This document shows positions 2,251 to 16,740 of a DNA stretch of 17,159 nt, piece after piece (within the stretch, counting starts at the first letter, position 1; each line of letters starts with the position of its first letter). A program made the translations under genes and the position numbers. Origin of the DNA: Elusimicrobiota bacterium (GTDB lineage: Bacteria; Elusimicrobiota; Elusimicrobia; UBA1565; UBA9628); assembly GCA_035606075.1 (NCBI GenBank), contig DATNGC010000158.1:1-17159 (forward strand). Reading direction: 5' to 3'. Below the pieces are notes generated by a model that made no database searches, was not told the origin of the DNA, and was given only the letters and a program-made list of their open reading frames with translations.

Positions 2251-2337
2251 AGTTTTCGCAGTCACTCTCGAACGATCTCTATTCCTCTTAGCGTCAGCCA
2301 GTCCGAGGCTTGCGGACTGACGATCGAATTCTTCGGA

Positions 2338-2366: not shown

Positions 2367-2392
2367 TCTCTTTTTTATTTCGCGCTCCGTGA

Positions 2393-2420
2393 GGAAAAGA
2401 CGGCCGGAGACCGGCGGCAG
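2393..2420 (-). terminator. weak candidate intrinsic terminator after the last BMC gene
   Basis: The minus strand reads gccgg-tct-ccggc followed by cgtctttt, about 120 nt after the BMC-H stop. The stem is short, so this call is tentative. Confidence 0.2.
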
Positions 2421-2540
2421 CGTTCTCGCCGGACGCGGCGCCGGCGGAACGGACGAAGCGGCCGCCGGCCCGGCTTTCGCCAGGCCGGCGACCAGCAGAT
2501 CGATGAGGTCGTCCCGGGTCAGCACGTCGCGGCGGGAGCG

Positions 2541-2828
2541 TTACTTCTCTAAGCGGATCGCGATGCGGTCCAGGTACTTCTCGAGGTCGTCGTGCGGGCG
2601 CGGGATCACGTGCACCGCGATCAGTTGGCCCACTTTGGAGGCGGCCGCGGCGGCGGCGTCCACGGCGGCGCGCACGGCGCCGACCTCTCCGCGGCACAGG
2701 GTGGTCACCAGGCCGTCCCCGACCTTCTCGTAGCCGAGCAGGCGCACCTTGGCCGACTTGCCCATCGCGTCCGAGGCCTCGATCATGCCGACGAAGCCTT
2801 TCGTCTCCACCATTCCCAGAGCTTCCAT
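2541..2828 (-). CDS. BMC-H shell protein (single Pfam00936-type domain, PduA/EutM-like), copy 1
   Basis: This 95-aa protein is [57 protein letters not shown]...VHVIPRPH. It is the only meaningful part of the 511-aa Arg-rich track ORF 2541..4076. A good SD sequence (aaggaga) lies upstream. Confidence 0.9.
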
Positions 2829-2839
2829 GCGTTTCTCCT

Positions 2840-3148
2840 TTACTCGAACTCCTCGTCGGTCAGGCCGCGGTCCTCGGCGCCCGTCTCCAGGACCGCGTTG
2901 CAGCGCGTGCAGCGCCGCGGGGTGCTGTACGTCCGCACGCAGGCGTCGTCCTCGGGCCACCACTCCTCGAAGAACATCTCGACCTTCTTGTGGCACTTGA
3001 GGCAGAACTTCTCCAGCCCCGCGCCGCAGCCCGCGCAGAACTTCGGCAGCGGCTGCCCCTCGTGGGTGTGCATGATCGCGGCGCACGCCCCGCACTGCAG
3101 GTCGATGGTGATCTTGTACTTCGCCGGCTGCTTGTCGTCTTTGGCCAT
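2840..3148 (-). CDS. small Cys-rich protein with four CxxC motifs (putative double zinc ribbon) and an acidic C-terminal tail; unknown function
   Basis: This 102-aa ORF has CxxC pairs at C19/22, C38/41, C49/52 and C80/83. The third positions are G/C-rich. It is tightly packed between deoC and BMC-H, and an SD sequence (agaggga) is present. Confidence 0.6.
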
Positions 3149-3160
3149 ATCTGGGTCCCT

Positions 3161-4148
<988 letters not shown>

Positions 4149-4156
<8 letters not shown>

Positions 4157-4445
4157 ATTTTTTCACCTTTCCGCCGGAGACGACCGAGTCCACGATGCCC
4201 ACGATCACGGTCCGGATCGGCGCCTTGTCGTCGTGCAGCACCGAGCGCGCCGACCCGCCCTCGTCCATCACCAGAACGATCGAGCCCGGCCCGGAGCCGG
4301 TCACGTACTCCACGGCCATCTGCGCGTCGCCGAGCGGCTTCTCCGTCTGTGGATCGATAGGCCGCACGAGGAGAAGGCGCTTGTCGCACAGAGAGCAGTG
4401 CTTGCGCGTCCCCCACACGTTGCCGACGACTTCCGCTACAAACAT
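4149..4445 (-). CDS. BMC-P vertex pentamer protein (EutN/CcmL/PduN family), copy 1
   Basis: The protein reads [16 protein letters not shown]...LLLVRPI...[20 protein letters not shown]...IVGIVDSV. Its last 8 nt overlap the deoC start (ATGAATGA). Confidence 0.85.
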
Positions 4446-4455
4446 TCTTAATCTT

Positions 4456-4671
4456 TCAGCCGGCGAGAGCGACCTCGAACGGCTTTTTCTTCAAATTGCT
4501 GATCTTCAGAACCGAAAACCCGAGCACACGGCCCTCCGCATCGACTTTTTGCATGACTTGCTCATGTTTTGTCTCGCGAAAATAACCGGGTGTCTTGGAA
4601 TCGAACAGGACTTCGAGAAAATCTCCTTCAGGATCGAACCACACCTTCATCCTCGCTTTCACTTTGGCCAT
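4456..4671 (-). CDS. DUF2283-like small protein (putative antitoxin partner)
   Basis: This 71-aa protein is MAKVKARMKVWFDPEGDFLEVLFDSKTPGYFRETKH...GRVLGFSVL, the DUF2283 pattern (MK..YD.E.D.LYI). The real start is the ATG at 4671; the longer 152-aa track ORF has a junk N-terminus. It overlaps the upstream gene by 13 nt. Confidence 0.55.
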   Translation of the reverse strand: MAKVKARMKVWFDPEGDFLEVLFDSKTPGYFRETKHEQVMQKVDAEGRVLGFSVLKISNLKKKPFEVALAG

Positions 4672-4979
4672 AATCTCGGACCTCGTTTGATCGTGTCGGT
4701 GTAATACGCCGTCAAGACGAACGCATCGTGCGAGCGAATCTTGACCACGACGCAAAGATATTTGTCGCCGACGGGACTTCCAAAGATATAACGATAGTAT
4801 AGCCGCGCCTCGCCATCGGCGCGAGACTGAACGACCTGCTCGGGATGAAGAAGAATTCGACCGATGTCGGAAAGGCTTCGGTACATTTCTGGGTGTTCTT
4901 GGATATGATCCCACCTTTCATCGGTCAGCCGAATGCTTCGCCCTTCGTAGTCGTGAAAGACTTTCAAGGCGCCGCCCAC
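4659..4979 (-). CDS. DUF4258-like small protein (putative toxin partner of the downstream DUF2283-like gene)
   Basis: This ORF of ~100 aa is MGGALKVFHDYEGRSIRLTDERWDHIQEHPEM...KYLCVVVKIRSHDAFVLTAYYTD. It has a GTG start at 4979 or a TTG at 4967. Its size, its 13-nt overlap with the DUF2283-like gene and its low GC fit a TA module. Family assignment is from memory. Confidence 0.45.
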   Translation of the reverse strand: MGGALKVFHDYEGRSIRLTDERWDHIQEHPEMYRSLSDIGRILLHPEQVVQSRADGEARLYYRYIFGSPVGDKYLCVVVKIRSHDAFVLTAYYTDTIKRGPRLWPK

Positions 4980-5323
4980 GTTGCCTTCATTCCAGATGGA
5001 ATCACCAGCGTCCAGGCAATACGGGGTTCCAGTAGCCCCGTCACGTCACTTCTCGGGATAATATATAGGCATGGCGTCGTTTCGATGTCCTCAACCAGAT
5101 AAACGAAGTAGTCCATATGCTTCTGAATCGCTCTGAAGTGATGCATCTCCATCAATCGCCAGCCGGCGCTCTTCTTTCCGACCCCTTTTACTTCAATCTT
5201 CCGACCAATGGACTCAACATCGTATCCCTGCCCTTGTTTAATTGCGCGCGCGGTGCGACCTTGTTTCCTCTCGTATTCGATCACGAATTCAACGGCCTTT
5301 GTCTCTATCTCTTTGTTGGTCAT
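4964..5323 (-). CDS. small PD-(D/E)xK nuclease-fold protein (DUF3883 / Mrr-cat-like)
   Basis: This 119-aa protein reads ...AVEFVIEYERKQG...GYDVESIGRKIEVKG..., which gives an E...D...E-x-K arrangement typical of restriction-endonuclease-like folds. The gene is low GC. Confidence 0.45.
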   Translation of the reverse strand: MTNKEIETKAVEFVIEYERKQGRTARAIKQGQGYDVESIGRKIEVKGVGKKSAGWRLMEMHHFRAIQKHMDYFVYLVEDIETTPCLYIIPRSDVTGLLEPRIAWTLVIPSGMKATWAAP

Positions 5324-5365
5324 GCAATCCGTCCTGTCATGGCTGAATCTAGAGATATTACGCGG

Positions 5366-6046
5366 CTATTCGTCCCGCAGTTTGCTTTCGAATGCTGCCT
5401 TGTCTTTCTGTTCGGATAGGCTCGTCCTTTTCTCATCATCCTTTTCTTTTGACCAGCGAACCGCCATCAAATCCTTATCTATAAAAATGACGCCGCGTTC
5501 CCAGTATGTCTTCTCATTGCGAGGTATTTTCTGCTCATACAGCATCATTTCCCGATTGCCATCCCGCCAAAATGCCGCCTGACTGCATTTCGGCGTAACA
5601 GGGTTTCCTTCATATCGATTTGAAAAGGAGCTTACCAGCATCCAGCAATAAACAAGCGGGTCCGCGTGAGCGGCATTGTTGGGGCCATATTTTTCAGACT
5701 TAAACTTCAACAATCCGCTGAATCCGTACTGTCCGGCCTTGTGGCCATACCGTCCCAGCATCTTGTCAATTCGATGGTTGATGACAGTGTAATACACGTC
5801 GACATATGGCTCTGGTATTACGTCGCCCTGCGAGGACAAAAGCGTGTAAATCGAGGCTATGCCATCGGCGTCTTCCTTTGACGTCGGCATACCGACTTCA
5901 TACTTGCCGATGCCCATTCTTAATTTCCTATTAGGCACATCCACGGCATAAGCAACGAGTTGCCCGAAAGTTAACAGAAAAATCAGTTTGGCATATCGCT
6001 TCCCTGTCTGCCCGCGGTTAATCGAACTCATTCCCAAGGAAATCAT
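5366..6046 (-). CDS. secreted hypothetical protein with an N-terminal signal peptide
   Basis: This 226-aa ORF begins MISLGMSSINRGQTGKRYAKLIFLLTFGQLVAYA|VD, a signal-peptidase-I-type leader. The gene is low GC. Its ATG overlaps the TGA of BMC-P copy 2 (ATGA). No family was recognised. Confidence 0.45.
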   Translation of the reverse strand: MISLGMSSINRGQTGKRYAKLIFLLTFGQLVAYAVDVPNRKLRMGIGKYEVGMPTSKEDADGIASIYTLLSSQGDVIPEPYVDVYYTVINHRIDKMLGRYGHKAGQYGFSGLLKFKSEKYGPNNAAHADPLVYCWMLVSSFSNRYEGNPVTPKCSQAAFWRDGNREMMLYEQKIPRNEKTYWERGVIFIDKDLMAVRWSKEKDDEKRTSLSEQKDKAAFESKLRDE

Positions 6047-6318
6047 CGGAATTTTTTGACCTGATGTCCGTCGACGATCCCCACGATCGCCGCGTCGACG
6101 GGCGGGGCGTCCGGGAAGGCCACGGCGGCGTCCCGGGACGCCACCCAGAATACTTTTTCCGAAGAGCCCGCGCCGACGGCGTCGGCCGCCACGATGGGGT
6201 CCCCGATCGCGGATTCGTCCTCCCAGCGCAGCGGTTGGATCAACAATAGGGTCTTTTTGTCCACAGCCGGGTCCTGGCGGGAGCAGAAGACGCGGCCGAT
6301 CACGCGGGCGAGCTTCAT
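6043..6318 (-). CDS. BMC-P vertex pentamer protein (EutN/PduN family), copy 2
   Basis: This 91-aa protein is MKLARVIGRVFCSRQDPAVDKKTLLLIQPL...VAADAVGAG...AAIVGIVDGHQV. It is the genuine C-terminal part of the 399-aa Arg-rich track ORF 6043..7242. Its ATG overlaps the rpiB TGA (ATGA). Confidence 0.85.
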   Translation of the reverse strand: MKLARVIGRVFCSRQDPAVDKKTLLLIQPLRWEDESAIGDPIVAADAVGAGSSEKVFWVASRDAAVAFPDAPPVDAAIVGIVDGHQVKKFR

Positions 6319-6764
6319 CGCGAGTACTTCCTCTCGATGGCCGCGACCTTGGCGAGGCGGCCCTCGTGGCGGCCGCCCTCGAACGGAGTGGAGAAGAACA
6401 CCTTCACGATCTCGCCGTGGATCAGCTCGCCGTGCGACTTGCCGCCGATGCACAGGACGTTCGCGTCGTCGTGCTGCGCCGCCATGCGCGCCGACACCGA
6501 ATCGTAGGCCGCCACCGCGCGGACTCCCGGGACTTTGTTCGCGGCCATGCACACCGCCCCGCCGAAGCCGTCGATCAGCACGCCCTTGTCGAACTCGCGC
6601 CGCGCGACCGCCTCGGCCACGAGCTGGGCCACGTCGGGGTAGTCCACCGCGTCGAGCGAGTGACAGCCGAAGTCGACCACCTCGTGGCCCATTTTTTGAA
6701 TGGCCTTCTTGATGAAGTCCTTCGCGGAGAATCCGCCGTGGTCGCTGCCGATGACGACTTTCAT
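6315..6764 (-). CDS. rpiB: ribose-5-phosphate isomerase B (RpiB/LacAB family)
   Basis: The protein MKVVIGSDHGGF...DYPDVAQLVAEAV...GVLIDGFGGAVCMAANKVPGVRAV...ANVLCIGGK...EGGRHEGRLAKVAAIE is closely colinear with E. coli RpiB, as recalled. Confidence 0.9.
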   Translation of the reverse strand: MKVVIGSDHGGFSAKDFIKKAIQKMGHEVVDFGCHSLDAVDYPDVAQLVAEAVARREFDKGVLIDGFGGAVCMAANKVPGVRAVAAYDSVSARMAAQHDDANVLCIGGKSHGELIHGEIVKVFFSTPFEGGRHEGRLAKVAAIERKYSR

Positions 6765-7316
6765 TTATTTCCCGATGGTCGAGAGAAGCTGCGCGTCCGC
6801 CTGCGGGATCACGACGTGCGTCACGAGCTGGTCCGGGCGCAGGGACGACACCGCGGCCGCGAGCGCCGAGCGCACGTCGCCGACCTCGCCGCACAGAGTG
6901 AAGTACCCCTTGCCGCCGGGGACCACGGTCTTGACCTCGAGGATGTGGATCGACGCGGCCTTCGCGGCGGCGTCGGCGGCCTTGACCGTCGCGACCGCCT
7001 CCTTCGTCTCGACGATGCCAACCGCGTTGAGGACGTCGACGGGGATGCGCTTGTCGAGCGCCGAGATCACCTGCGAGTGGACGTTGCGGATCAGGACCTC
7101 GTCGACGAGCGTCTTGCCCATCACCTCTTTGCCGGCGCGGAGCGAGGACTCGACCTCGCCGACCGGGCCGGTGATGAGGATGACGTATTTGCCCCGAGCG
7201 ATCACGGCGGTCTTGGCGAGCTTGACCGCGGCCATCTTGCACATCGCGTCCGAGGCCTCGATGCCTTTGGCGATCGAGTTTCCTTCCAGGAATCCGACGG
7301 CGAGGTTGGCGAGCAT
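6765..7316 (-). CDS. BMC-T shell protein, tandem Pfam00936 domains (PduT-like); the pore cysteine of PduT is apparently replaced by Ala
   Basis: This 183-aa protein is MLANLAVGFLEGNSIAKGIEASDAMCKMAAVKL...LDKRIPVDVLNAVGIVETKEAVATVKAADAAAK...VVIPQAD and aligns by eye with PduT. The PduT motif TICPGK is VIARGK here. The real ATG is at 7316; the 220-aa track ORF carries 37 junk N-terminal residues. TAA is followed directly by the rpiB ATG. Confidence 0.85.
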   Translation of the reverse strand: MLANLAVGFLEGNSIAKGIEASDAMCKMAAVKLAKTAVIARGKYVILITGPVGEVESSLRAGKEVMGKTLVDEVLIRNVHSQVISALDKRIPVDVLNAVGIVETKEAVATVKAADAAAKAASIHILEVKTVVPGGKGYFTLCGEVGDVRSALAAAVSSLRPDQLVTHVVIPQADAQLLSTIGK

Positions 7317-7320
7317 GTCT

Positions 7321-8349
7321 TTACACTCCCAGCGCCTGACGCGTTGTGGCGTCGGCGGTCTTTTCGTTGAACCAGTTCGGGTACATGGGCACGGGCGCGG
7401 TCGCGGCGTCCAGCGTCGAGACCTCATCCTTCGTCAGTTCCAGATCGGCGGCTTTCAAGTTGTCTTCGAGCTGGGACATCTTGCTCGCTCCGACGAGGAT
7501 CGTGGTCGCCCAATCCTTCGAGAGCAGCCAGGCCAAGGCGACGGACGCCACCGAGGCGCCTTTTTTCTTCGCGATCTTCCCCATCGCGTCGATCAGGTCG
7601 TACGCCTTTTCCTTGTCCGTGGGCAGGAAGTCGAAATCCTTGAGCCGGCCCGAGCCGCCCGTCGGGTCCTTGCGCGTGTACCGGCCTGAGAGGAAGCCCC
7701 CCGCGAGCGGCGACCAGACCATCATCCCCACGCCCGCGGCGCGCATGAACGGGACCGTCTCGTGCTCGACGTCGCGCCCCACCAGCGACGCGTACATCTG
7801 CGCCGCGCGGAAGCGCGTCCAGCCCTTTTCTTTCTGAGTCGCGACCGCCAGCGCCGCCTGCCAGGCGGGCCAGTTGCTGTAGCCGACGTAGCGGACCTTG
7901 CCCGAGCGCACGAGGTCCTCGAGCGCGCGCAAGGTCTCGTCGAGCGGAGTGAACGGGTCCACGCGGTGAACGACGAAGAGGTCGAGCCAGTCCGTGCCCA
8001 GGCGCTTGAGGCTGCCCTCGGCCTGCATGATCAGGTTGCGCGCCGAGAGGCCCGTGCGCAGCTGCGAGTCGGAGGCGCGGAAGCCCGCCTTCGTGCAGAT
8101 TGCGATCTCCGCGCGCTTAGCGCCCAGAGCCTTGCCCAGGATCGTCTCGGACTCGCCGCCCGCGTACATGTCGGCGGAGTCGAAGAGATTGATGCCGGCA
8201 TCGAGACAGCGCCCGACGAGCGCGTTCGCCTCTTTCTGACCCGTCTTCCAGACGTTGCCCATCGGGCCTTGGCCCGAGCCGAACGTCATCGAGCCGAACG
8301 AGAGACGGGAGACGACGAGACCGGTGTCGCCGAGTCGAGCGTATTTCAT
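7321..8349 (-). CDS. aldo/keto reductase family oxidoreductase (Tas/YajO-like)
   Basis: This 342-aa protein is MKYARLGDTGLVVSRLSFGSMTFG...DSADMYAGGESE...KRLGTDWLDLFVVHRVD...GKVRYVGYSNW... It is the real C-terminal part of the 559-aa track ORF. Its ATG overlaps the aldehyde dehydrogenase TGA (ATGA). Confidence 0.85.
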   Translation of the reverse strand: MKYARLGDTGLVVSRLSFGSMTFGSGQGPMGNVWKTGQKEANALVGRCLDAGINLFDSADMYAGGESETILGKALGAKRAEIAICTKAGFRASDSQLRTGLSARNLIMQAEGSLKRLGTDWLDLFVVHRVDPFTPLDETLRALEDLVRSGKVRYVGYSNWPAWQAALAVATQKEKGWTRFRAAQMYASLVGRDVEHETVPFMRAAGVGMMVWSPLAGGFLSGRYTRKDPTGGSGRLKDFDFLPTDKEKAYDLIDAMGKIAKKKGASVASVALAWLLSKDWATTILVGASKMSQLEDNLKAADLELTKDEVSTLDAATAPVPMYPNWFNEKTADATTRQALGV

Positions 8350-9800
8350 CACGCGATCCTGAAGTAGCCCACGAGCGAGCAGTGCAGCGGCCGCGCGAAG
8401 TGGCTGGTCTTGGTCAGCCCGTCGCCGGTCGGCGTGCCGATCGACATCGTGGCGTAGCCCTCTCCCAGGCCGAGGCCGTAGAGAGTGGGCGCGTTCTTGA
8501 CGTAGATGGAGCACTGCATGCGCCGCGCCATCTTGGTCAGGTTGCCGACGTTCGTGGAGTGCATGGCCGCCGTGTGGCGATGCCCGCCCTCGGCCTCGAC
8601 GGCGAGAGCGATCGCCGCGTCCACGTCGGGCGCGACCGTGACCGGCAGGACCGGCATCAGCTGCTCGGTCCAGACGAGCGTGTGGTCGTTGGGCACCTCT
8701 CCCCACAGCAGGCGCACGCCGTCCGGGACGGTCAGGCCGATCCCCTTGGCGATGAACGCCGCGTCCTTGCCCACGTAGTCGCGGTTGAGGACGGGATCCT
8801 TGCAGCCCTTGCCGCCGACCTTGATGACCACCTTCATGAGCTGATCCATCTGCTCGCGCGAGAGCTCGAAGGCGCGCGAGTCGGCGCGCATCGCGGCGAG
8901 GAAGCGGTCGCGCGCGGCGGCCGTCACGATGACTTCTTTCTCGGCGGTACAGAGAACGTTGTTGTCGAACGACGCGCCGAAAATGACGTCTTGAGCGCAC
9001 TTCGGAAAAATCGCCGTTTCGTCCACGACGACAGGGGGATTTCCAGGCCCGGCAGCAATCGTTTTACAAGTCTTGCCCACCGTCATCGCAACCTTGACGA
9101 TGGCGGGGCCGCCCGTGACCATGTTCACGCGCGCGTCGGGGTGAGCGAGCAGGTTCTTGGTGTTGTCCTGCGAGGGCTTCTCGAACGTCGTGATCAGGCC
9201 GCGCGGCGCGCCCGCGGCGACCGCGGCCGCCGCGAGCAGGCGCATCGTCTCCAGACAGACCTTGAACGACGCCGGGTGCGGCGCGAAAACGACGGAGTTT
9301 CCGGCCGAGAGGATGGAGAGGCCGTTGTTGATGATCGTCGCGGCCGGGTTCGTCGACGGCGTGATCGCCGCCACGACGCCGTACGGCGCGTACTCGACCA
9401 AGGTGAGGCCCTTGTCGCCGGTGAAGCACTTGGAGGTCAGGTCCTCGACGCCCGGCGTGCGCGTCGCGCAGACCAGGTTCTTCTGGACCTTGTCCTCCCA
9501 GCGGCCCATGCCGGTCTCCTCGCGCGCCATCTTGGCGAGGCGCTCGGCGTTGGCGATGGCCGCCTTGCGCATCGCGCGGATCACCTCGCGCCGCAGCTCG
9601 AGGCCCTGGTCCTGGAAGACCGCCTGCGCGCGCTTGGCCGCCTGCACTGCTTCGTCGACGGTCGGAAAGAGCACGCCGTCGCCGGCCCCCGCGGACGAAA
9701 CAGGAGCGGAGGGGCTCGCGGTCACGACCGAGCCGAGTTCCTCCTTCTCGAGGCGCTTGAGAACCTCGGCGATGACGCGGGCGATCTCCTCGCTCTGCAT
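8349..9800 (-). CDS. CoA-acylating aldehyde dehydrogenase (PduP/EutE family) with N-terminal encapsulation-peptide-like helix
   Basis: This 483-aa protein starts with the amphipathic helix MQSEEIARVIAEVLKRLEKEE, followed by a Ser/Ala/Gly linker. The core has ITPSTNPAATIINN and the VLCTAEKE catalytic-Cys region typical of BMC aldehyde dehydrogenases. Confidence 0.9.
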   Translation of the reverse strand: MQSEEIARVIAEVLKRLEKEELGSVVTASPSAPVSSAGAGDGVLFPTVDEAVQAAKRAQAVFQDQGLELRREVIRAMRKAAIANAERLAKMAREETGMGRWEDKVQKNLVCATRTPGVEDLTSKCFTGDKGLTLVEYAPYGVVAAITPSTNPAATIINNGLSILSAGNSVVFAPHPASFKVCLETMRLLAAAAVAAGAPRGLITTFEKPSQDNTKNLLAHPDARVNMVTGGPAIVKVAMTVGKTCKTIAAGPGNPPVVVDETAIFPKCAQDVIFGASFDNNVLCTAEKEVIVTAAARDRFLAAMRADSRAFELSREQMDQLMKVVIKVGGKGCKDPVLNRDYVGKDAAFIAKGIGLTVPDGVRLLWGEVPNDHTLVWTEQLMPVLPVTVAPDVDAAIALAVEAEGGHRHTAAMHSTNVGNLTKMARRMQCSIYVKNAPTLYGLGLGEGYATMSIGTPTGDGLTKTSHFARPLHCSLVGYFRIA

Positions 9801-9806
9801 GGGCTT

Positions 9807-10118
9807 TTACCTGTTCGCGGCTGCGTCGCTGGACTTCTTGAAGGCGGTCTTGCCGGACTGCTCGACGGTGTCCACGATCGCGAAGATCACGGCGTCCACC
9901 GGTCGGCCTTCGGTGCGGGTGGTCTGACGGGCGCTCGACCCCTGCACGATCAAGACGAGCTCCCCCTCGCCGGCGCCGACGGAGTCGACGGCGACGAGAG
10001 GGTTGCCCTTCGAGGCGCCGGCCAAGTCCACGGGCTGAACCAGCAGCAGCTTGGACCCGACCAGCTTCTCGTCCTTGAGGGTGCAGACGACGGTGCCCGT
10101 GACGCGGGCGAAGATCAT
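9807..10118 (-). CDS. BMC-P vertex pentamer protein (EutN/PduN family), copy 3
   Basis: This 103-aa protein is MIFARVTGTVVCTLKDEKLVGSKLLLVQPV...VAVDSVGAGEGELVLIVQGSSARQ...AVIFAIVD. Confidence 0.85.
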   Translation of the reverse strand: MIFARVTGTVVCTLKDEKLVGSKLLLVQPVDLAGASKGNPLVAVDSVGAGEGELVLIVQGSSARQTTRTEGRPVDAVIFAIVDTVEQSGKTAFKKSSDAAANR

Positions 10119-10137
10119 ATGGATCTCGCTCGGGGCC

Positions 10138-10434
10138 TTACTTCTTGCGCGCCAGGTTCTCGGGGAGCGAGATCGGCATCTTCCCCTCGAGGTCCGGGTG
10201 CGGCTGCGGGATCACATGCACGGCGATCAGCTCGCCGACCTTCTGCGCGGCGGCGGCGCCGGAGTCGCAGGCGGCCTTGCACGCGGCGACCTCGCCGCGG
10301 AACAGCACGGTCACGAGTCCCGTCCCCACCTTTTCATAACCGACGATGCGGACGTCGGCGGCCTTCACGGCGGCGTCGGCGGCTTCCACGCAGGCGACGA
10401 GGCCGCGCGTCTCGATCATTCCGAGTGCGTTCAT
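10138..10434 (-). CDS. BMC-H shell protein (PduA/EutM-like), copy 2
   Basis: This 98-aa protein is [55 protein letters not shown]...VHVIPQPH. An SD sequence (aaggagag) lies 5 nt before the ATG. Confidence 0.9.
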
Positions 10435-10446
10435 GTTCTCTCCTTG

Positions 10447-10507
10447 GGGTCAGGCTTTGACTTTTTGACTTATTCGGTGAATAAGTCAAAAAGTCAAAGC
10501 CTGACCC
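10447..10507. repeat. 61-bp perfect palindrome (29-bp arms, 3-nt centre), AT-rich, between pduL and BMC-H
   Basis: The sequence is gggtcaggctttgactttttgacttattc-ggt-gaataagtcaaaaagtcaaagcctgaccc. The arms pair perfectly, and each contains two TTGAC(T) units. It ends 8 nt before the SD of the BMC-H gene, and no U-tract follows on the transcribed strand. Confidence 0.8.
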
Positions 10508-10511
10508 TTCT

Positions 10512-11147
10512 TTAAGCTATGTGCACGAAATCGCCGGTTTTGATGCCGGCGGAGTTGGCCTCGTCGGTGTCGACGTGGAACTCCAGGCTGTACTTGTCCG
10601 AAACGCGGACGATGCAGTCTTCGAAAACGGTGGAGCGTCCGCCGCCGGTGCCGCAGCGCACGCGCACGAGCTCGCCGCTGGTCATCCCCCACTTCTTCGC
10701 CTCGTCGGGCGAGAAATGGACGTGGCGCTGGGCGATGATGACGCCCTCTTTGATCTCGACTTTGCCGGCCGGGCCGATCAGGATCGCGCCGGCGGACCCC
10801 TTCACGTCGCCGGATTCCCGCACGGGGGGCTTCAATCCGATGGATATAGCGTCGGTCACCGCGAGCTCGATCTGGGTATTGGCGCGATACGGAGCCACCA
10901 GGCGGACCTTCTTCACCACTCCCTTGGGCCCCTGCACGTCGATGAGTTCCTCGGCGGCGTAGAAGCCGGGCTGTTTGATGTCTTTGACTTTCTTGGGGGA
11001 AGCCGCGGCGCCGAACAAAATCTTGAAGTGAGCCTCGGTCAAGTGACAATGTTTATTGGACACGCCGACGGGGATGTCGAGCTTGGAGCGCTGGAGGCGC
11101 TTCTCGATCTCGGAGGCCAGCCCGGCGATCTGCGTCGGGGAGATCAC
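10512..11147 (-). CDS. pduL: phosphate acyltransferase PduL (two PF06130-type repeats) with N-terminal encapsulation-peptide-like helix
   Basis: The protein has ...VGVSNKHCHL...QPGFYA...TDA..IG..P.R.SGD..GS.G..L.GP.G...AQRHVHFSPDEA...DTDEANSAGI. The likely start is GTG 11147, giving MISPTQIAGLASEIEKRLQRS, and it overlaps the tpiA stop (GTGA). The 596-aa track ORF is mostly wrong-frame junk upstream of this. Confidence 0.85.
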   Translation of the reverse strand: MISPTQIAGLASEIEKRLQRSKLDIPVGVSNKHCHLTEAHFKILFGAAASPKKVKDIKQPGFYAAEELIDVQGPKGVVKKVRLVAPYRANTQIELAVTDAISIGLKPPVRESGDVKGSAGAILIGPAGKVEIKEGVIIAQRHVHFSPDEAKKWGMTSGELVRVRCGTGGGRSTVFEDCIVRVSDKYSLEFHVDTDEANSAGIKTGDFVHIA

Positions 11148-11911
11148 GCGGGCTTGAACCCCATGATGCGCAGGAATGCGTCCTTCTTGAGGCTCGCGCC
11201 GCCGACCAGCGCGCCGTCCACGTCGGGCTGCGCCATCAGCGAGTCCACGTTTTCGGCCGTGACCGAGCCGCCGTAGAGGATCCGGATGCCGGACGCGAAA
11301 TTCTTGCCGTGCAGCCGCTCGAGCTGCTGGCGCGTGAACAGGTGCGCCTCCTGCGCCTGGGCCGGCGTGGCCGTCTTGCCCGTGCCGATCGCCCAGACCG
11401 GCTCGTAGGCGATGACGACCTTGGAGAGGTCGGCGGGCGCGAAGCCCTTGAGCCCGTTTGCGATCTGCGTCTCCAGCACGCGCCACGTCTTCTGCGTCTC
11501 GCGCTCGTCGAGCGTCTCGCCGATGCAGACGACGGGCGTCAGGCCCGCCTTGAGCGCCGCGCCCAGCTTCTTGTTGACGTTCTCGTCGGTGTCCCCGAAG
11601 AGCTTGCGCCGCTCCGAGTGGCCGATCAAAGTCATCGCGCAGCCGGCGTCGAGCAGCATGTTGGCCGAGATCTCGCCCGTGAACGCGCCCGACGCCTCCC
11701 AGTAGACGTCCTGGGCGCCCAGCCGCACCGGGCTGCCGCGCAGGACCTCGGCGACCACGGTGATGGCGGTGAAGGGCACGAAAACGGCGACCTCGCCGGA
11801 GGCGCCGGCGGCGCCGTCCTTGACCGCCCGGGCCAGCTCGACGGACTGGGCGAGCGTCAGGTTCATCTTCCAATTTCCGGCCAACAGGGGGCGGCGCAGA
11901 GGGGAGCTCAT
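11144..11911 (-). CDS. tpiA: triosephosphate isomerase
   Basis: The protein has ...RRPLLAGNWKMN...IGHSERR...VVCIGE...YEPVWAIGTGKTA...ILYGGSV. The ATG at 11911 gives MSSPLRRPLLAGNWKMN. The track ORF extends to GTG 11947, so the start is ambiguous within 11911-11947. Confidence 0.9.
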   Translation of the reverse strand: MSSPLRRPLLAGNWKMNLTLAQSVELARAVKDGAAGASGEVAVFVPFTAITVVAEVLRGSPVRLGAQDVYWEASGAFTGEISANMLLDAGCAMTLIGHSERRKLFGDTDENVNKKLGAALKAGLTPVVCIGETLDERETQKTWRVLETQIANGLKGFAPADLSKVVIAYEPVWAIGTGKTATPAQAQEAHLFTRQQLERLHGKNFASGIRILYGGSVTAENVDSLMAQPDVDGALVGGASLKKDAFLRIMGFKPA

Positions 11912-11929
11912 GGGTTCTTTCGGGTCCTT

Positions 11930-11948
11930 TGTGGACATATTGTCCACA
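11930..11948. promoter_or_regulatory. perfect 8-3-8 inverted repeat TGTGGACA-TAT-TGTCCACA (candidate operator) between the promoter and the tpiA RBS
   Basis: This exact palindrome lies ~20-40 nt downstream of the predicted transcription start and ~20 nt upstream of the tpiA ATG at 11911. A near-identical copy occurs at 14901..14919. Confidence 0.55.
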
Positions 11949-11976
11949 CCGTCTTTCCAGGGACGTTCCAGGCCGT

Positions 11977-12005
11977 ATTCTACTCCGAAGACGCGCCCAA
12001 GTCAA
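11977..12005 (-). promoter_or_regulatory. sigma70-like promoter for the tpiA-BMC operon (TTGACT-17nt-TAGAAT)
   Basis: The minus strand reads ttgact tgggcgcgtcttcggag tagaat, with an exact 17-nt spacer. It sits in the only sizeable intergenic gap (11912-12064) upstream of tpiA. Confidence 0.5.
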
Positions 12006-12064
12006 TGATGGAATGTCGCTCGGAATGGATATTTCCGAAGTCTTCCCGCAACGTCCCGGCGGGC

Positions 12065-12661
12065 CTAAAAGTCCGAGAAGGGGACGACGACCTCGCCCAG
12101 CTGGCCGGGGTTGTATTCCCCTCCCAGCACGGACTTGCGGGGGCGCTTGACGCGCACCGCGTAGACGCCGGCCTTGCGCGCCTGCAGCAGCTCCCGGTCG
12201 GTCGAGCCGACGAACAGGACGTAGCGGCCGTCCTGCAGGTGGAGGTGGAGCTCCTCGGGGTCGGAGACGAACGTGAACCCGCGCGGCGCCAGGTGGCGCC
12301 ACTCCTTCTTCAGCGCCTCGCCGCCGGTCGCCTGCCGCTCCGCGAGGATCAGGATGTGGAAGCCGAACAGTCGGGCGACGCCCGCCGCGGCGTAGGGCAG
12401 GAGCTTGGGGCTCTCGAGATCGTAGGAGGTGTTGATCGTCTTCCAGTAATCGGGGCCGTGCGCCTGCGCGGAGGCCGCTCCCTGCGCCTTCTCGTAGGCG
12501 GCCGAGGAGTTCACGAGCGCGTCGTCGTAGGCGAAGGCGACGCCCAGGCGCGCGATCGTCACGAGGCTGAAGATCAGCCCCCAGACGCTCATCAGCGCGA
12601 GGATCTTCTTCGTCGTGGTCCAGGCCTTCTCGACTTTCTCGCGCGCATCCTTCAGAACCAT
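12065..12661 (-). CDS. membrane-anchored class B acid phosphatase-like protein (AphA / HAD subfamily IIIB-like), possibly catalytically degenerate
   Basis: This 198-aa protein has an N-terminal TM helix (ILALMSVWGLIFSLVTIARLGVAF). The C-terminal half aligns by eye with AphA: YVLFVGSTDRELLQARKAGVYAVRVKRPRKS...GEVVVPFSDF matches [30 protein letters not shown]...GEEVIVNSEY. The motif I position reads AYDDA instead of DIDDT. Its ATG lies 1 nt after the 5'-nucleotidase stop. Confidence 0.5.
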   Translation of the reverse strand: MVLKDAREKVEKAWTTTKKILALMSVWGLIFSLVTIARLGVAFAYDDALVNSSAAYEKAQGAASAQAHGPDYWKTINTSYDLESPKLLPYAAAGVARLFGFHILILAERQATGGEALKKEWRHLAPRGFTFVSDPEELHLHLQDGRYVLFVGSTDRELLQARKAGVYAVRVKRPRKSVLGGEYNPGQLGEVVVPFSDF

Positions 12662-12662
12662 G

Positions 12663-14183
12663 TCATTCCCCCAAGGAGATCAAGCGCCCGGCCGGAGGCG
12701 GGGCGATCGTCTTCTGCTTCTCGGCGCACGCGCGCAGGGCGTCGCGCGCGAGCAGTCCGGTGTCCCGCGGCGAGGCCGACGAAAACTCCTCGTAGCTGCC
12801 CGCCAGGAAATCGAGCGTCGCGACCGAGTACGTCTTAGCGTCGTCGAGCGGCGCCCCGCCGACCGTGACCCTGCCGAGGCGCGAGCCGCGCGGCTTGAGC
12901 GGGGATATCTCGGCCGTCATGCCGCCGATCTGCGCGATCTTCGGCGAGCCGACGACGTGGTCGAGGGCGGCGCGCAGCTTGGCCCCGCTCATGCGCAGGG
13001 TGACCACGGTGTCGTCGAAAGGCATGGCCTCGAACAAGCGGCGCAGGGTGACGGGCCCCGCCGGGATGTCCGCGCGGATGCCGCCGCCGTTCATGATGAA
13101 CGCGTCCGCGTCCTCCGTCGCCTTGAAGCAATCCGCCATCCAAGAGCCCAGGCCGGACTCGCCGGCGCCGGCGCGGTCGAGGTCCCGCGTCGCGGTCGCG
13201 ACGACGAGCCTGAACGCCTCGCCGAGGTCCTTCTCGCGCCGGTCGACGATCGCCTTCATCGCGGGGTCCTGTCCGAGGCGGTCGACCCACAGGTCGAGAA
13301 GCTCGTCGGAGGACGCCGTCACGCGCCTCGTCGCGGGATCGATCTTGAGGGTCGCCCGGCCGACCTTGAAGAAGTAGGACCCGGCCTGGACGATCAAGGT
13401 CCCGTGGGCCGGATCGCGCCACGCGCGGGACAAGGTCGTGTGGGTGTGGCCGCCGACGATCAGGTCGATGCCTTCCACCTCGCGCGCGAGCGTCTGGTCG
13501 CCCTCGAAGGGCGGCTTGTCCGGCGCCTCGAAGCCGACGTGCGTGACCGCGATGATCACGTCGGCGCCCTCCTTCCTCAGCGCCGCGACCTGGTCGCGGG
13601 CCTCGTCGGTCTCGCGGCGGAAGGTCAGGCCCGCGATCTTGCCGGGGACCTCGAGCCGGTCCATGTGCGACGTGATCAGGCCGAAGATCCCGAACTTGAC
13701 CCCGGAGACCTCCTTGACGATCCTCTGTCTCGTCCAGGAGACGTGCTTGCCGGACGAATCGTAGATATTGGCGGCGAGGACCGGCATCGCCATCTTCGCG
13801 TTGAGCGCGGCCGCCGAGGACCAGCCCGCGTCGAACTCGTGGTTGCCCATCTCGACGGCGTCGTAGCCCATCGCGTTGAACGCCTCGGCGACGGCCTCGC
13901 CGTGCGTCGTCGAGCCCTCGGGCGTGCCCTGCCACCAGTCGCCCGCGTCGAGGACGAGGCGGGGATTGGAGTCCCTGTTCAGCAGCGACTTCATCGCCGC
14001 CGCGCCGCCGATCGGACGGCCGTTGCGCTTGTCGGTCTGCGGCATGATCCAGCCGTGCACGTCGTTGGTGTGGTAGACCCGCACGACGATCGGCGCGGGC
14101 ACGGCGGCGGCGCCTTGGTCCTGCGCCCGGACGAACGGACAGGCGAGGGCCAGCGCGAGGGCCGGCAGGCCGAGCCGTCTCAC
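12663..14183 (-). CDS. secreted bifunctional metallophosphatase / 5'-nucleotidase (UshA family)
   Basis: This 506-aa protein has a signal peptide MRRLGLPALALALACPFVRAQDQ, metallophosphoesterase motifs (YHTNDVHG, GNHEFD, GGHTH) and a 5'-nucleotidase C-terminal domain. It has a GTG start that overlaps the upstream stop (GTGA). Confidence 0.8.
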   Translation of the reverse strand: MRRLGLPALALALACPFVRAQDQGAAAVPAPIVVRVYHTNDVHGWIMPQTDKRNGRPIGGAAAMKSLLNRDSNPRLVLDAGDWWQGTPEGSTTHGEAVAEAFNAMGYDAVEMGNHEFDAGWSSAAALNAKMAMPVLAANIYDSSGKHVSWTRQRIVKEVSGVKFGIFGLITSHMDRLEVPGKIAGLTFRRETDEARDQVAALRKEGADVIIAVTHVGFEAPDKPPFEGDQTLAREVEGIDLIVGGHTHTTLSRAWRDPAHGTLIVQAGSYFFKVGRATLKIDPATRRVTASSDELLDLWVDRLGQDPAMKAIVDRREKDLGEAFRLVVATATRDLDRAGAGESGLGSWMADCFKATEDADAFIMNGGGIRADIPAGPVTLRRLFEAMPFDDTVVTLRMSGAKLRAALDHVVGSPKIAQIGGMTAEISPLKPRGSRLGRVTVGGAPLDDAKTYSVATLDFLAGSYEEFSSASPRDTGLLARDALRACAEKQKTIAPPPAGRLISLGE

Positions 14184-14749
14184 TCGGCGAGGCTCCCCGC
14201 CAGCGCGTCGCAGGCCTGCTGCAGGCCCTCGGCGGCCGAGGACAGCCGCGAGGCGACCTCGCTGCGCTTGACCGCCACGACGAAGAACGGCGACTCGCGG
14301 GCCGCGTCCAGCGCTGCGCGGCGGCGGCGCTCGACGTCAGCGGCCCAGCGCTTGGCGTCGTCGAGGGCGTTCGCGCGCGCCGAGCCGGCGACGGCGAGGG
14401 CGCGGGCCAGGGACTTCGCGCCGGAGCGCAGGCCGTCGGCCATCGCGGCGAACTCGGGATCGGCGCCGAGCCCCCACTGCGTGGCGTCGGACACCGCTCC
14501 GACGGCGTGCTCGACGGCCTCGCGCAGGGCGAACGAGTAGTCCGCCGCGCCGGCCGCGGCGGCTCCGGCGCGTCCGCGCAGGCCCGCGACCGCGCGCTCG
14601 CGCGCGCCGCGCGAGCGCAGGCGCGCCGTCCGCGCGGCCGACAGCGCGGCGGGCTCGGGCCGGCGGAACCAGCGCGCCGCGGCGTCGGCGGCGTCGGCCA
14701 GCAATTGCGCCTGTCCGCGCGAGGGCGCCTCCGACGATTTTCGGGCCAT
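14180..14749 (-). CDS. hypothetical Ala/Arg-rich protein (predicted all-helical)
   Basis: This 189-aa ORF has consistently G/C-ending codons and an ATG start at 14749. No recognisable motifs were found. Confidence 0.4.
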   Translation of the reverse strand: MARKSSEAPSRGQAQLLADAADAAARWFRRPEPAALSAARTARLRSRGARERAVAGLRGRAGAAAAGAADYSFALREAVEHAVGAVSDATQWGLGADPEFAAMADGLRSGAKSLARALAVAGSARANALDDAKRWAADVERRRRAALDAARESPFFVVAVKRSEVASRLSSAAEGLQQACDALAGSLAE

Positions 14750-14780
14750 GATTCAGTTTACGAAAAAACGAGGCGGCGCG

Positions 14781-15506
14781 TCAGCGGCGGAACGGGCCTC
14801 GGGCCGCCGGCGCCGCTCCGAGCAGCCGCTCGGCGTCGCGGAAGGCGTCGCGGTGCGAGAGCACGAGGTAGGCAGGCTTGCCGCGCGCGGCGTCCTTGAT
14901 CGTAGACAAATTGTCCACAGACAGCGCCCCCACCCGCGGCCCCTGCGGGCGCAGGTAGCGGAACGCGCCGCGCTCGGGCACGGCCTCCTTCAGCGGGTCG
15001 ACGGCGCGGATCAGGCCCAGCTCCCCGCACACGCGGTCGACGAGCGCCGATCCCCAGGCGACTCCGCGAGGGTGCCACACGCAGGCGAAGCGGCCCCGGG
15101 GCATCGCCTTGAAGAACCGGTACATGTCGCGCAGGCGGTCGGGGCCCGGCTGGAAGGAAGCCGGGGTCTCGAAGACCACCACCTTGGCGCCCAAGGCCTC
15201 GGCAGCGGCCTTCGTGGACATCCAGGCCTCATGGACCTCCAGGCTCTCGCGGAAGCCGCCGCACTGGCGCTGGGCCGCCGGAGAGAGCTTCTTCGCCGCC
15301 GGCGGGAAGCCGCGGTCCTCGCGGCCGTGGGTGATGGCCCGCGAGGCCTGCACGGAGAACTCGGCCTCGATCGGGGCGGTCGCCCGCCATTGGGCGAGGG
15401 TGGCGGGCCGCGGCATGACCTCCCCCGTGCGCGCCTCGACGAAGGAGAACGACCGCCAATAGCGGTCTTGGCCGATGGGGAAGCCGGCGCAGCCGATCTT
15501 CAGCAT
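14781..15506 (-). CDS. DUF72 (YecE/UPF0759) family protein
   Basis: The protein is MLKIGCAGFPIGQDRYWRSFSFVEARTGE...FSVQASRAITH..., the characteristic DUF72 N-terminus. The real start is the ATG at 15506; the 280-aa track ORF has 39 junk residues upstream. Confidence 0.7.
   Translation of the reverse strand: MLKIGCAGFPIGQDRYWRSFSFVEARTGEVMPRPATLAQWRATAPIEAEFSVQASRAITHGREDRGFPPAAKKLSPAAQRQCGGFRESLEVHEAWMSTKAAAEALGAKVVVFETPASFQPGPDRLRDMYRFFKAMPRGRFACVWHPRGVAWGSALVDRVCGELGLIRAVDPLKEAVPERGAFRYLRPQGPRVGALSVDNLSTIKDAARGKPAYLVLSHRDAFRDAERLLGAAPAARGPFRR
14901..14919. promoter_or_regulatory. second copy of the TGTGGACA-N3-TGTCCACA-type inverted repeat (cgtagaca-aat-tgtccaca), inside the 3' part of the DUF72 gene
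   Basis: The right arm tgtccaca is identical to that of the tpiA operator, and the left arm matches at 6 of 8 positions. On the minus strand the two copies read TGTGGACAATATGTCCAC and TGTGGACAATTTGTCTAC. It lies ~150 nt upstream of the next gene start at 14749. Confidence 0.4.
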
Positions 15507-15513
15507 CCAGCCG

Positions 15514-15849
15514 CTAATCGAAGAGGGTGAACTCGGGCTCGCGCCGGGGCCGCGAGACGGTCTCCGGCAGGCGGCGCGCCCAGCGCAGGCAGTACCAGGC
15601 CAAGCCGAGGCAGGCCAGGCCATAGGCCAGCTCGAAGCCGGCGTAGCGCAGCCACTGGGCCTCGGTCACGAACGCCCATTTTTGGGGGGCATACAGGTTG
15701 GCCTCGGGCTCGCCTCCGCAGAGGTCCCAAACGCCCTTGAAAGCAACCAGCCCGCCCCACCCGGCGAAGATCGCCGCGGTGAGACGGGCCAGTCCGCGAA
15801 TCTTGATCGTCTCCGTCGCCGACTTCGTCGCCGACGGAGATTCCTTCAT
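15514..15849 (-). CDS. small membrane protein (two predicted TM helices)
   Basis: This 111-aa protein starts at the ATG at 15849. Its hydrophobic stretches are LARLTAAIFAGWGGLVAF and FELAYGLACLGLAWYCL. The codons are G/C3-rich, and it lies 20 nt downstream of rpsI. Confidence 0.45.
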   Translation of the reverse strand: MKESPSATKSATETIKIRGLARLTAAIFAGWGGLVAFKGVWDLCGGEPEANLYAPQKWAFVTEAQWLRYAGFELAYGLACLGLAWYCLRWARRLPETVSRPRREPEFTLFD

Positions 15850-15868
15850 AAACAACAGCCTCGGAAGC

Positions 15869-16270
15869 TTAGCGCTTCGAGTACTGGAAGCGCTTGCGGG
15901 CCTTGGGCTGACCGCTCTTCTTGCGCTCGACCATGCGGGGGTCGCGCGTCAGGAAGCCGGCGGCCTTGAGGGCCTTCTTGTTCTTGTCGTCGGCCTTGAC
16001 CAGCACGCGGGAGATCGCGTGGCGGGCCGCCCCGGCCTGGCCGGAGATGCCGCCGCCGACGACCTTGACGACGTAGTCGTGGCTCTTGGCGGCCTCGACG
16101 ACCTCGAGAGGCGAGCGGACGTCGCGGACCTGGTGCGGCAGGCCCTTGAAGTACTCGTCGACGGGCTTCTTGTTGACGGTGATCTTGCCGTCGCCCTTCG
16201 CCAGCAGGCGGACCTGCGCGATGGAGTTCTTGCGGCGACCGGTGGCGCGGAGCTCTTCGTTCTTACCCAT
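15869..16270 (-). CDS. rpsI: 30S ribosomal protein S9
   Basis: This 133-aa protein ends ...GGGISGQAGAARHAISRVL...FLTRDPRMVERKK.GQPKARKRFQYSKR, the classic S9 C-terminus. Confidence 0.95.
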   Translation of the reverse strand: MGKNEELRATGRRKNSIAQVRLLAKGDGKITVNKKPVDEYFKGLPHQVRDVRSPLEVVEAAKSHDYVVKVVGGGISGQAGAARHAISRVLVKADDKNKKALKAAGFLTRDPRMVERKKSGQPKARKRFQYSKR

Positions 16271-16272
16271 GA

Positions 16273-16707
16273 TTACTTGGCCTTCGCTTCGAGGTTGGAA
16301 TAGGGATGCTTCTCGTTGACGTAGATCCTCAGCCGCGCGAGCTGCTTGCGCGCCAGGCGGTTCTTCGGCAGCATGCGGCGCACGGCGAGCATGAGGACCC
16401 GGCGCGGGTCCCGCTCCATCTGGCGCTTGAGCGGCATGGTCTTGGCGCCGCCGGCGTAGCCGGAGTGCGAGAAGTAGAACTTCTGGTTCAGCTTGTCGCC
16501 CGTGAGCTTGACCTGCTTGATGTTCGTCACGACGACGACGTCGCCGCAGTCCACGAAATCGGTATAGGTCGGCTTGTGCTTGCCGCGAAGCAGAGTGGCG
16601 GCCTTGGTCGCGATGCGGCCGAGGACCAGCCCCTTCGCATCGATGTGGTGAAAGCCGCGCTGGCCAGCGGCCGTGCGGGGCGGATGAATATAGGTCTTCT
16701 GTGGCAT
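16273..16707 (-). CDS. rplM: 50S ribosomal protein L13
   Basis: The protein is MPQKTYI...GLVLGRIATKAATLLRGKHKPTYT..., which matches L13. The real ATG is at 16707, and the gene lies directly upstream of rpsI in the conserved rplM-rpsI pair. Confidence 0.95.
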   Translation of the reverse strand: MPQKTYIHPPRTAAGQRGFHHIDAKGLVLGRIATKAATLLRGKHKPTYTDFVDCGDVVVVTNIKQVKLTGDKLNQKFYFSHSGYAGGAKTMPLKRQMERDPRRVLMLAVRRMLPKNRLARKQLARLRIYVNEKHPYSNLEAKAK

Positions 16708-16740
16708 AACGTCTAAAGATAGCAAATTACCGACGGGGGC

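Follow-up and report, generated by a model that had tools for sequence, protein, structure and literature searches.

A 17,159-nt stretch of DNA from an Elusimicrobiota bacterium (contig DATNGC010000158.1), referred to below as the window, carries a cassette of three tightly packed genes directly upstream of an operon for a sugar phosphate utilizing (SPU) bacterial microcompartment (BMC). The three genes encode a divergent DUF47/PhoU-like protein, an exported 5'-nucleotidase (NT5) and a membrane-anchored relative of the class B acid phosphatase AphA (AphL). The cassette is interpreted here as a nucleotide-dephosphorylation unit with a promoter of its own and a functional link to the deoxyribose-phosphate pathway ending in encapsulated DeoC, an interpretation that is given an even chance of being correct. 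In the window lineage, AphL itself reads as a catalytically dead but conserved pseudo-phosphatase, in which phosphatase and phosphotransferase activity are predicted to be absent.

Related loci, designated by L numbers, were collected by scanning one genome per GTDB species. There were 76 of them, and all of those with a phylum name belong to the Elusimicrobiota. NT5 lies immediately upstream of AphL in 59 of 62 species loci, a recurrence that argues against a chance arrangement, and the gap between the two is exactly 1 nt in 30 of the 59. tpiA follows downstream of AphL in 52 of 55 loci, and shell genes are found downstream in 43 of 49. The order NT5-AphL-tpiA is near-universal in this Elusimicrobiota clade. 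A preliminary description of the same DNA had placed the pair immediately upstream of the DeoC microcompartment operon, and this was confirmed, with 117 nt separating AphL from tpiA in the window.

The loci L015 (8806-13887) and L068 (10001-13518) are shell-less: NT5, AphL and tpiA precede a short deoC that lacks the N-terminal extension, and no pduL, aldehyde dehydrogenase (AldDH), RpiB or BMC gene was found in either. The dyad described below was not found in these two loci at up to two mismatches. Since both retain the order NT5-AphL-tpiA-deoC, the cassette appears to track tpiA-deoC rather than the shell. In L068, the next gene after the short deoC is pilT.

AphL as a predicted pseudo-phosphatase

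By sequence, AphL resembles AphA only weakly. It scores 23.4 bits (E 3.6e-5) against the TIGR01672 profile, for which the cut-off is 195.8, and its matches to AphA sequences in the PDB are weak (E about 5e-3). No Pfam family matched, and a precomputed PF03767 match is present in just two distant orthologues. An AlphaFold (AF2) model was obtained with a pLDDT of 89.9 and a pTM of 0.81, and in a Foldseek search of the PDB its best 13 matches were all AphA, with E values from 8e-10 to 2e-8 and TM-scores of 0.69-0.75 over about 187 columns. Other HAD proteins were far behind (E 1e-5), by four orders of magnitude. On the basis of this model, AphL has an AphA-type fold.

Signal peptides and topology were judged from hydropathy, charge and conservation. 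Residues 19-37 of AphL are hydrophobic (mean Kyte-Doolittle value 1.99), with six Lys/Arg and three Asp/Glu residues before the segment and one and three, respectively, after it, a balance that predicts an N-in/C-out orientation with a cytoplasmic tail and a periplasmic domain. The tail (residues 1-19) and the transmembrane helix (about 19-37) are conserved at least as well as the globular domain, and a cleavable signal peptide was considered unlikely on this ground. Homology, fold and predicted topology thus agree with the class B acid phosphatase homologue with an N-terminal transmembrane anchor that had been described previously. The family is small, with 171 representatives at 50% identity and E ≤1e-3 among 1.84 billion proteins, and all named homologues come from metagenome-assembled genomes of Elusimicrobia.

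The catalytic residues of AphA are taken here to be the nucleophile Asp44, the acid/base Asp46, Thr48, Lys152 (Lys154 in Salmonella, for which mutant structures appear among the Foldseek matches) and the Mg ligands Asp167 and Asp171. Aligned with AphA by HMMER and with its own family, AphL has A44, D46, A48, L138, S153 and E157 at the corresponding positions, in the same order. The aligned blocks read FAYDDA in AphL against FDIDDT in AphA, and GSTDRE against GDSDND. Motif I (DxDxT), the motif III lysine and the motif IV aspartate pair of class B enzymes are all missing from AphL, and no alternative DxD motif was found near motif I. HAD phosphatases need the nucleophile aspartate, and with the nucleophile, the lysine and the Mg ligands lost, AphL should be incapable of HAD phospho-aspartyl chemistry.

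Alanine occupies the nucleophile position in each of the 27 closest homologues (P0001-P0027), which are 77-94% identical to AphL, so that the loss is a property of the clade and not an error. Down to about 65% identity, most homologues carry A, T, V or C at this position and L or I in place of the lysine. More distant orthologues keep the full AphA set, and those at about 68% identity or less mostly read D-Y-D-D-T. Among 73 species-level AphL sequences, 46 are intact (D44, D46, T48, K138, D153, D157) and 17 have lost the nucleophile. These 17 fall in at least four separate neighbor-joining branches, namely the query clade (A/T/C), one G clade and two E clades.

Within the nucleophile-lost clade, dN/dS was found to be 0.14 for AphL, 0.35 for NT5 and 0.09 for TIM. 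These values were taken from the L083-L084 pair, since synonymous sites between the window and its nearest loci are saturated in all tested genes except the DUF47-like one. The rate of AphL relative to NT5 is unaltered, at 0.86 in nucleophile-lost and 0.90 in intact clades. AphL is thus under strong purifying selection despite the residue loss. The conclusion drawn from these comparisons is that the ancestral AphL would have been an active, membrane-anchored class B phosphatase, and that the window lineage presumably retains the protein for a non-catalytic role. With at least four nucleophile losses under purifying selection, the membrane-anchored AphL would be a clear-cut case, found in nature, of a periplasmic pseudo-phosphatase.

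Catalytically dead enzymes have been described in BMC systems before, including an inactive RpiB in SPU and inactive AldDH copies (PMC11585597). As in AphL, the fold is kept under selection after catalytic loss, presumably for binding or assembly; AphL differs in belonging to the HAD superfamily and in sitting outside the organelle, in the cell envelope.

Many members of the AphL family are labeled "acid phosphatase class B" by JGI, including clusters that lack the nucleophile. The nucleophile aspartate is missing in 75 of the best 120 AphL clusters at 90% identity, and caution is called for with this annotation of AphL genes. In L063 (2102-2692) and L076 (9279-9869), a dead AphL with the motif E-Y-D-G-A lies directly upstream of tpiA; no match to NT5, the DUF47-like gene or DUF72 was found in these two loci.

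The other cassette genes and their control elements

NT5 has the two-domain architecture of the UshA/NT5E family, confirmed by Pfam matches to Metallophos (PF00149, 1.4e-12) and 5_nucleotid_C (PF02872, 7.4e-32). Its best solved relative is an E. coli nucleotidase (3ivd, 1.9e-51), with an alignment spanning residues 34-469, and UshA itself (1ush) matches at 2.5e-32. The motifs DxH, GD, GNHE, H and GHxH are unchanging across 65 orthologues, as are GGIR, PF and DF in the C-terminal domain, and the metal and catalytic residues D41, H43, D82, N114, H115, H215, H246 and H248 are all present. This motif integrity predicts a catalytically complete enzyme. NT5 is not orthologous to UshA proper: its score of 171.8 bits against NCBIfam NF007109 is below the equivalog cut-off of 600, making it a member of the family rather than a UshA equivalog.

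The N-terminus of NT5, MRRLGLPALALALACPFVRA|QD, has the features of a Sec signal peptide, with an h-region of hydropathy 2.14 followed by VRA|Q. SPI-type signal peptides ending in AxA are predicted in all NT5 orthologues (60+). The UshA-type enzyme with a signal peptide of the preliminary description is therefore borne out by Pfam, by the PDB matches and by the predicted Sec signal. NT5 was also considered as a lipoprotein with Cys15 as the modified residue; this was rejected, as the cysteine varies among orthologues and the lipobox departs from the canonical form. The NT5 stop and the AphL start read TGA-C-ATG, a spacing of exactly 1 nt, just as had been noted before.

The first gene of the cassette has a stop codon that overlaps the NT5 start by 4 nt (GTGA). 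Its product has no Pfam match even at E values up to 1, and no hydrophobic, membrane-spanning segment. A low-GC orthologue in L051 matches PF01865 at 5e-17 (62.4 bits against a cut-off of 24.4), and hhalign connects the two through intermediates: window clade to intermediates at 99.7% (E 2.7e-27), intermediates to low-GC orthologues at 99.8% (E 1e-28), and window clade straight to low-GC orthologues at 98.3% (E 1.7e-14). At least 46 of 59 loci have a gene of this kind before NT5, and 35 show the 4-nt overlap; a dN/dS of 0.10 against L083 identifies it as a real gene under purifying selection. The product reads as a divergent, degenerate member of DUF47/PhoU_div, a helical family. DUF47 proteins are usually paired with PiT phosphate permeases. 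Here, in contrast, the partners are the exported NT5 and the HAD protein AphL with its membrane anchor, and the sequence of the window clade has fallen below Pfam detection. The gene lies within the range covered by the preliminary description, yet was left undescribed there.

Separate promoters appear to serve the cassette and tpiA. The tpiA promoter, of sigma-70 type, has 10 of 12 consensus matches, where 0.2 such sites are expected in the region, and its TTGAC and TA.AAT are invariant in eight aligned loci. Upstream of the DUF47-like gene is a non-coding element with invariant columns in a five-locus alignment. It is too weak for a consensus promoter scanner, and probably serves as the promoter of the cassette, whose transcript would then be nearly leaderless.

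The tpiA leader contains a perfect dyad. Of 73 distinct loci scanned, 50 have its equivalent a short distance before tpiA, loci with insertions among them. The arms co-vary (GGACA/TGTCC versus GGCCA/TGGCC), giving the general form TGTGG(A/C)CA-N3-TG(T/G)CCACA, and the dyad could serve as an operator or form a hairpin in the 5' UTR. Scans of the window for Rfam families and tRNAs gave no match, so the leaders are not accounted for by a riboswitch. No transcription factor gene was recognized among the small open reading frames (ORFs) of the window. A further dyad in the AphL-tpiA gap, GGAA-N7-TTCC, was discarded as no more frequent than chance.

A second copy of the leader dyad, with two mismatches, is embedded toward the 3' end of the DUF72 coding sequence, upstream of the cassette by about 150 nt and of the putative cassette promoter by about 120-140 nt. 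Two matches in the window compare with 0.03 expected. The embedded copy was found in about 20 loci. It encodes VDN[ML][AS]T, with Asn specified by AAT in all 19 loci (background 0.19) and Thr by ACA in 18 of the 19 (background 0.027); the chance of the codon choice seen in the window is about 4e-5. Since rare codons are kept at this site, the DNA or RNA sequence itself is under selection. The shared dyad previously reported is thus upheld by the two copies in the window, by their conservation across loci and by the selection on rare codons. A literature search for DUF72 gave no functional study among the matches listed.

A proposed feeder route and its alternatives

According to the proposed mechanism, the three translationally coupled genes would produce a PhoU-like cytoplasmic protein, an exported nucleotidase and a membrane-anchored AphA-fold protein that faces the periplasm. 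NT5 alone would do the chemistry, converting periplasmic (deoxy)nucleoside monophosphates into (deoxy)nucleosides and inorganic phosphate (Pi). The dead AphL would be a non-catalytic partner in a fixed ratio with NT5, most simply a membrane tether or a nucleotide- or nucleoside-binding subunit. The products of NT5 would feed the route to deoxyribose-5-phosphate, with the uptake, phosphorolysis and mutase steps encoded elsewhere, and the Pi would be used too. A single dyad-recognizing factor would govern both transcription units.

The preliminary description had likewise proposed a nucleotide-scavenging feeder to the encapsulated DeoC. Its core is favored by the conserved adjacency and the dyad, but a phosphatase role for AphL does not hold. 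The conserved promoter and dyad and the gene insertions before tpiA place the cassette, as predicted from sequence, outside the BMC operon transcription unit. The link from nucleotides to deoxyribose is plausible and better supported than before, though unproven.

Several points weigh against it. The entire 20-kb block, from rplM-rpsI to pilT, is syntenic in the clade, so that adjacency alone is no proof of a functional link. About 10 species have insertions of 0.6-8.6 kb, made up of heterogeneous, unrelated genes, between AphL and tpiA, and in three (L008, L013, L016) unrelated genes follow the cassette. tpiA has its own conserved promoter, separate from the cassette; co-regulation of the cassette and the BMC operon is at the level of a suggestion from the shared dyad, and a search for a sigma-70 promoter beside the second dyad found none. 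No nucleoside transporter or phosphorylase, phosphopentomutase or deoxyribokinase was found within 10 kb among the Pfam-annotated genes of four loci. Mirror-tree partial correlations among AphL, NT5, TIM and AldDH do not discriminate (0.29 for AphL-NT5 versus 0.33 for AphL-TIM). The non-catalytic role of AphL, be it tether, ligand-binding subunit or sensor, is pure inference, and the DUF47/PhoU-like gene points to phosphate homeostasis at least as much as to carbon scavenging.

This last point leads to the alternative that survives best, in which the cassette is a phosphate-scavenging module that releases and accounts for Pi from periplasmic nucleotides, with the PhoU-like protein as its phosphate-responsive component and the proximity to the BMC operon as inherited synteny. 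Such a module is a serious contender, though less likely than not. It would fit a first gene of the DUF47/PhoU_div type, a promoter-like element before the cassette, the separability of the cassette from tpiA, the equal synteny of the unrelated rplM-rpsI and pilT, and the lack of nucleoside-catabolic genes nearby. There is also a precedent, in that UshA-type enzymes gain phosphate from extracellular DNA; in Vibrio cholerae, UshA/CpdB/PhoX similarly include a periplasmic 5'-nucleotidase that frees Pi from nucleotides the cell is unable to import (PMC4714964). The V. cholerae genes are dispersed and partly Pho-regulated, whereas here NT5 is coupled to a PhoU-like gene beside a deoxyribose-phosphate organelle. 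However, inherited synteny fits less well with a cassette that stays with tpiA-deoC where the shell genes are missing, or with rare codons that preserve a copy of the tpiA-leader dyad just before the cassette, and no Pho box, pst or pit gene was found in the four Pfam-annotated loci. Moreover, the two explanations are not exclusive, as both products are usable. Pi is consumed in nucleoside phosphorolysis and by PduL.

A variant in which AphL is the periplasmic ligand-binding half of a transmembrane sensor is quite improbable. The tail and transmembrane helix would then signal to the PhoU-like protein, and the sensor, responding to nucleotides, nucleosides or phosphate in the periplasm, would gate NT5 and, via the dyad factor, microcompartment expression. 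If so, the repeated catalytic loss would mark a transition from enzyme to receptor.

E. coli UshA and AphA are reportedly redundant in action. Together with NadN, AphA and e(P4) of H. influenzae, they provide a close parallel to the cassette, with a Sec-exported UshA-family enzyme beside a DDDD/HAD phosphatase of the same folds, yielding nucleosides that can be transported. In H. influenzae, the three are jointly needed to convert nucleotides to nucleosides (PMC10694654). What differs here is that NT5 and AphL share a single translationally coupled unit with the DUF47-like gene, and that AphL is predicted to be anchored by an uncleaved, conserved helix rather than soluble, with its catalytic residues lost. 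The preliminary description had both proteins stripping phosphate together. In such an arrangement, a 5'-nucleotidase would be complemented by a class B phosphatase with broad 3'/5' specificity. It is probably ancestral and likely still true of the 46 of 73 species with intact AphL, but it is very improbable for the window, where the catalytic positions of AphL read A, A, L, S and E with no DxD substitute nearby.

Also very improbable is that the cassette handles another exported or external phospho-compound unrelated to deoxyribose, such as NAD/NMN (as with Haemophilus NadN and e(P4)), UDP-sugars or cyclic nucleotides: NT5 is far under every specific NCBIfam equivalog cut-off (UshA 172/600, NadN 101/436), which leaves room for other substrates, and in Haemophilus a UshA-family enzyme works alongside DDDD phosphatases associated with the membrane, but no pnuC, nadR or sugar-nucleotide gene was found in the neighborhood, the conserved partners are tpiA and deoC, and the nucleotide-binding residues of the C-terminal domain are those generic to 5'-nucleotidases.

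The feeder route bears on a wider question. The SPU microcompartment is among the most widespread bacterial organelles, and the origin of its substrate from DNA degradation, as has been proposed (PMC8217296, PMC11585597, PMC4207490), is still a hypothesis. A cassette that so persistently accompanies tpiA-deoC in a phylum-level clade, whether or not the shell is present, together with a dyad copy, is genomic evidence in favor of a substrate derived from nucleic acids, and supplies concrete genes and a cis-element for study of its source. The component families and the SPU organelle are already known. Nucleotidase or phosphatase accessory genes are not described in the three SPU papers searched, nor are the DUF47-NT5-AphL cassette beside SPU, a membrane-anchored AphA, its repeated conversion to a pseudo-enzyme or a codon-embedded second dyad. 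A literature search on nucleoside-catabolic genes in Elusimicrobia found nothing relevant.

The window and its microcompartment operon

A single row of minus-strand genes fills the window over the analyzed span, 317-16725 (Table 1), and GC content is high, at about 65-77%. The BMC operon has the same gene order as related loci and shows the features of an SPU locus: an extended DeoC, AldDH, BMC-H, BMC-T and three BMC-P. DeoC (331 residues) matches TIGR00126 deoC with 295 bits over residues 113-321, leaving an N-terminal extension of roughly 110 residues. A search for DeoC homologues listed 120 matches, all at least 64% identical, and every one with a named source comes from Elusimicrobia. The BMC, EutN and RpiB identities are backed by Pfam. 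The AldDH assignment rests on orthologues at the equivalent position (79-87% identical) that carry PF00171 Aldedh. The start of tpiA was set at ATG 11911 (MSSPLRR...) by alignment to L083 and L084; the mechanical ORF start, GTG 11947, falls inside the dyad and was rejected because the alignment of relatives favors the ATG.

Table 1. Genes and sequence elements of the window, with gene groups in the order of the minus-strand row
Feature	Position	Strand	Basis or remark
rplM, rpsI, small membrane ORF, DUF72	start of row, upstream of cassette	-	
189-aa ORF, 506-aa 5'-nucleotidase, 198-aa AphA-like protein, then 117-nt gap	after DUF72	-	
tpiA, pduL, BMC-H, BMC-P, AldDH, aldo/keto reductase, BMC-T, RpiB, BMC-P	after 117-nt gap	-	
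Low-GC islet, BMC-P, DeoC with N-terminal extension, Zn-ribbon ORF, BMC-H	after second BMC-P	-	
87-aa ORF, pilT, Pro/Ala-rich protein	end of row	-	
Second dyad copy, CGTAGACAAATTGTCCACA (+ strand), two mismatches	14901-14919		within 3' part of DUF72
Putative cassette promoter, GCTGACG-N17/18-TTTCGTA(A/G)ACT	14755-14784	-	non-coding, 5-7 nt before DUF47-like ATG
Divergent DUF47/PhoU_div-like protein, putatively cytoplasmic, 189 aa	14180-14749	-	first cassette gene
NT5, UshA/NT5E-family 5'-nucleotidase, predicted Sec-exported, 506 aa	12663-14183	-	Pfam, PDB, motifs
AphL, predicted AphA-fold protein (class B acid phosphatase, HAD), 198 aa	12065-12661	-	hidden Markov model, fold model
Sigma-70-type promoter, TTGACT-17-TAGAAT	11977-12005	-	in 117-nt AphL-tpiA gap
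Perfect dyad, TGTGGACA-TAT-TGTCCACA	11930-11948		tpiA leader
tpiA, first gene of SPU microcompartment operon	11144-11911	-	Pfam TIM 2.5e-92
Remainder of SPU-type BMC operon, pduL to last BMC-H	2541-11150	-	Pfam/NCBIfam matches
AldDH, 483 aa	8349-9800	-	homology to same-position orthologues
Aldo/keto reductase, between AldDH and BMC-T	7321-8289	-	Pfam 1.5e-72
Islet: 226-aa ORF			ATG overlaps BMC-P stop; no family match
Islet: NOV_C-domain ORF	4964-5323		
Islet: PBECR2/DUF4258-type toxin nuclease	4659-4979		
Islet: DUF2283 antitoxin-like ORF	4456-4680		
pilT	1171-2265	-	T2SSE 1.3e-45
Pro/Ala-rich protein, 283 aa, 18-nt-periodic repeats	317-1168	-	

The locus shares the extended DeoC, AldDH, PduL, TIM, RpiB, BMC-H, BMC-T and three BMC-P with the SPU loci described previously (Axen 2014; Sutter 2021; Dwyer 2024). 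It differs from them in its additional aldo/keto reductase and foreign low-GC islet, and no PduS homologue was present among the identified genes of the locus. The aldo/keto reductase has a counterpart at the same position in only one of the 76 related loci (L041), and may be a stand-in for alcohol dehydrogenase in NAD+ recycling.

The islet (about 4450-6046) has a GC content of 48-50% against about 67% and lies between the second and third BMC-P genes. It is missing from syntenic relatives: its 226-aa ORF was unmatched in every related locus, and the two BMC-P genes abut in L084. A perfect palindrome with 29-nt arms and a 3-nt loop (10447-10507) is situated between the stop codon of pduL and the start of the first BMC-H. 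It holds four copies of AAGTCAA/TTGACTT, of which there are six in the window against 0.65 expected. The palindrome is also found in the closest relative, L083 (12112-12165), where one T has been deleted symmetrically from both arms, and is lacking in L084 and L004. A hairpin in the operon RNA is one possibility, a small inserted element another.

Some of the genes inserted between AphL and tpiA in related loci could be assigned: an MFS transporter in L067 (10589-12025), a gene resembling GMC oxidoreductases together with an epimerase in L001 (10600-13031), and, just before tpiA in L058 (about 13700-14456), a second gene resembling HAD subfamily IIIB acid phosphatases. In all three, the dyad remains with tpiA. 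At the other end of the row, pilT, for a pilus retraction ATPase, trails the BMC locus in most related loci that are long enough, and the Pro/Ala-rich protein is matched in few. In L040 (CP096137.1, 8540-14202), NT5, pduL, BMC-P and AldDH are each broken into two frames, which look like assembly indel errors rather than pseudogenes.

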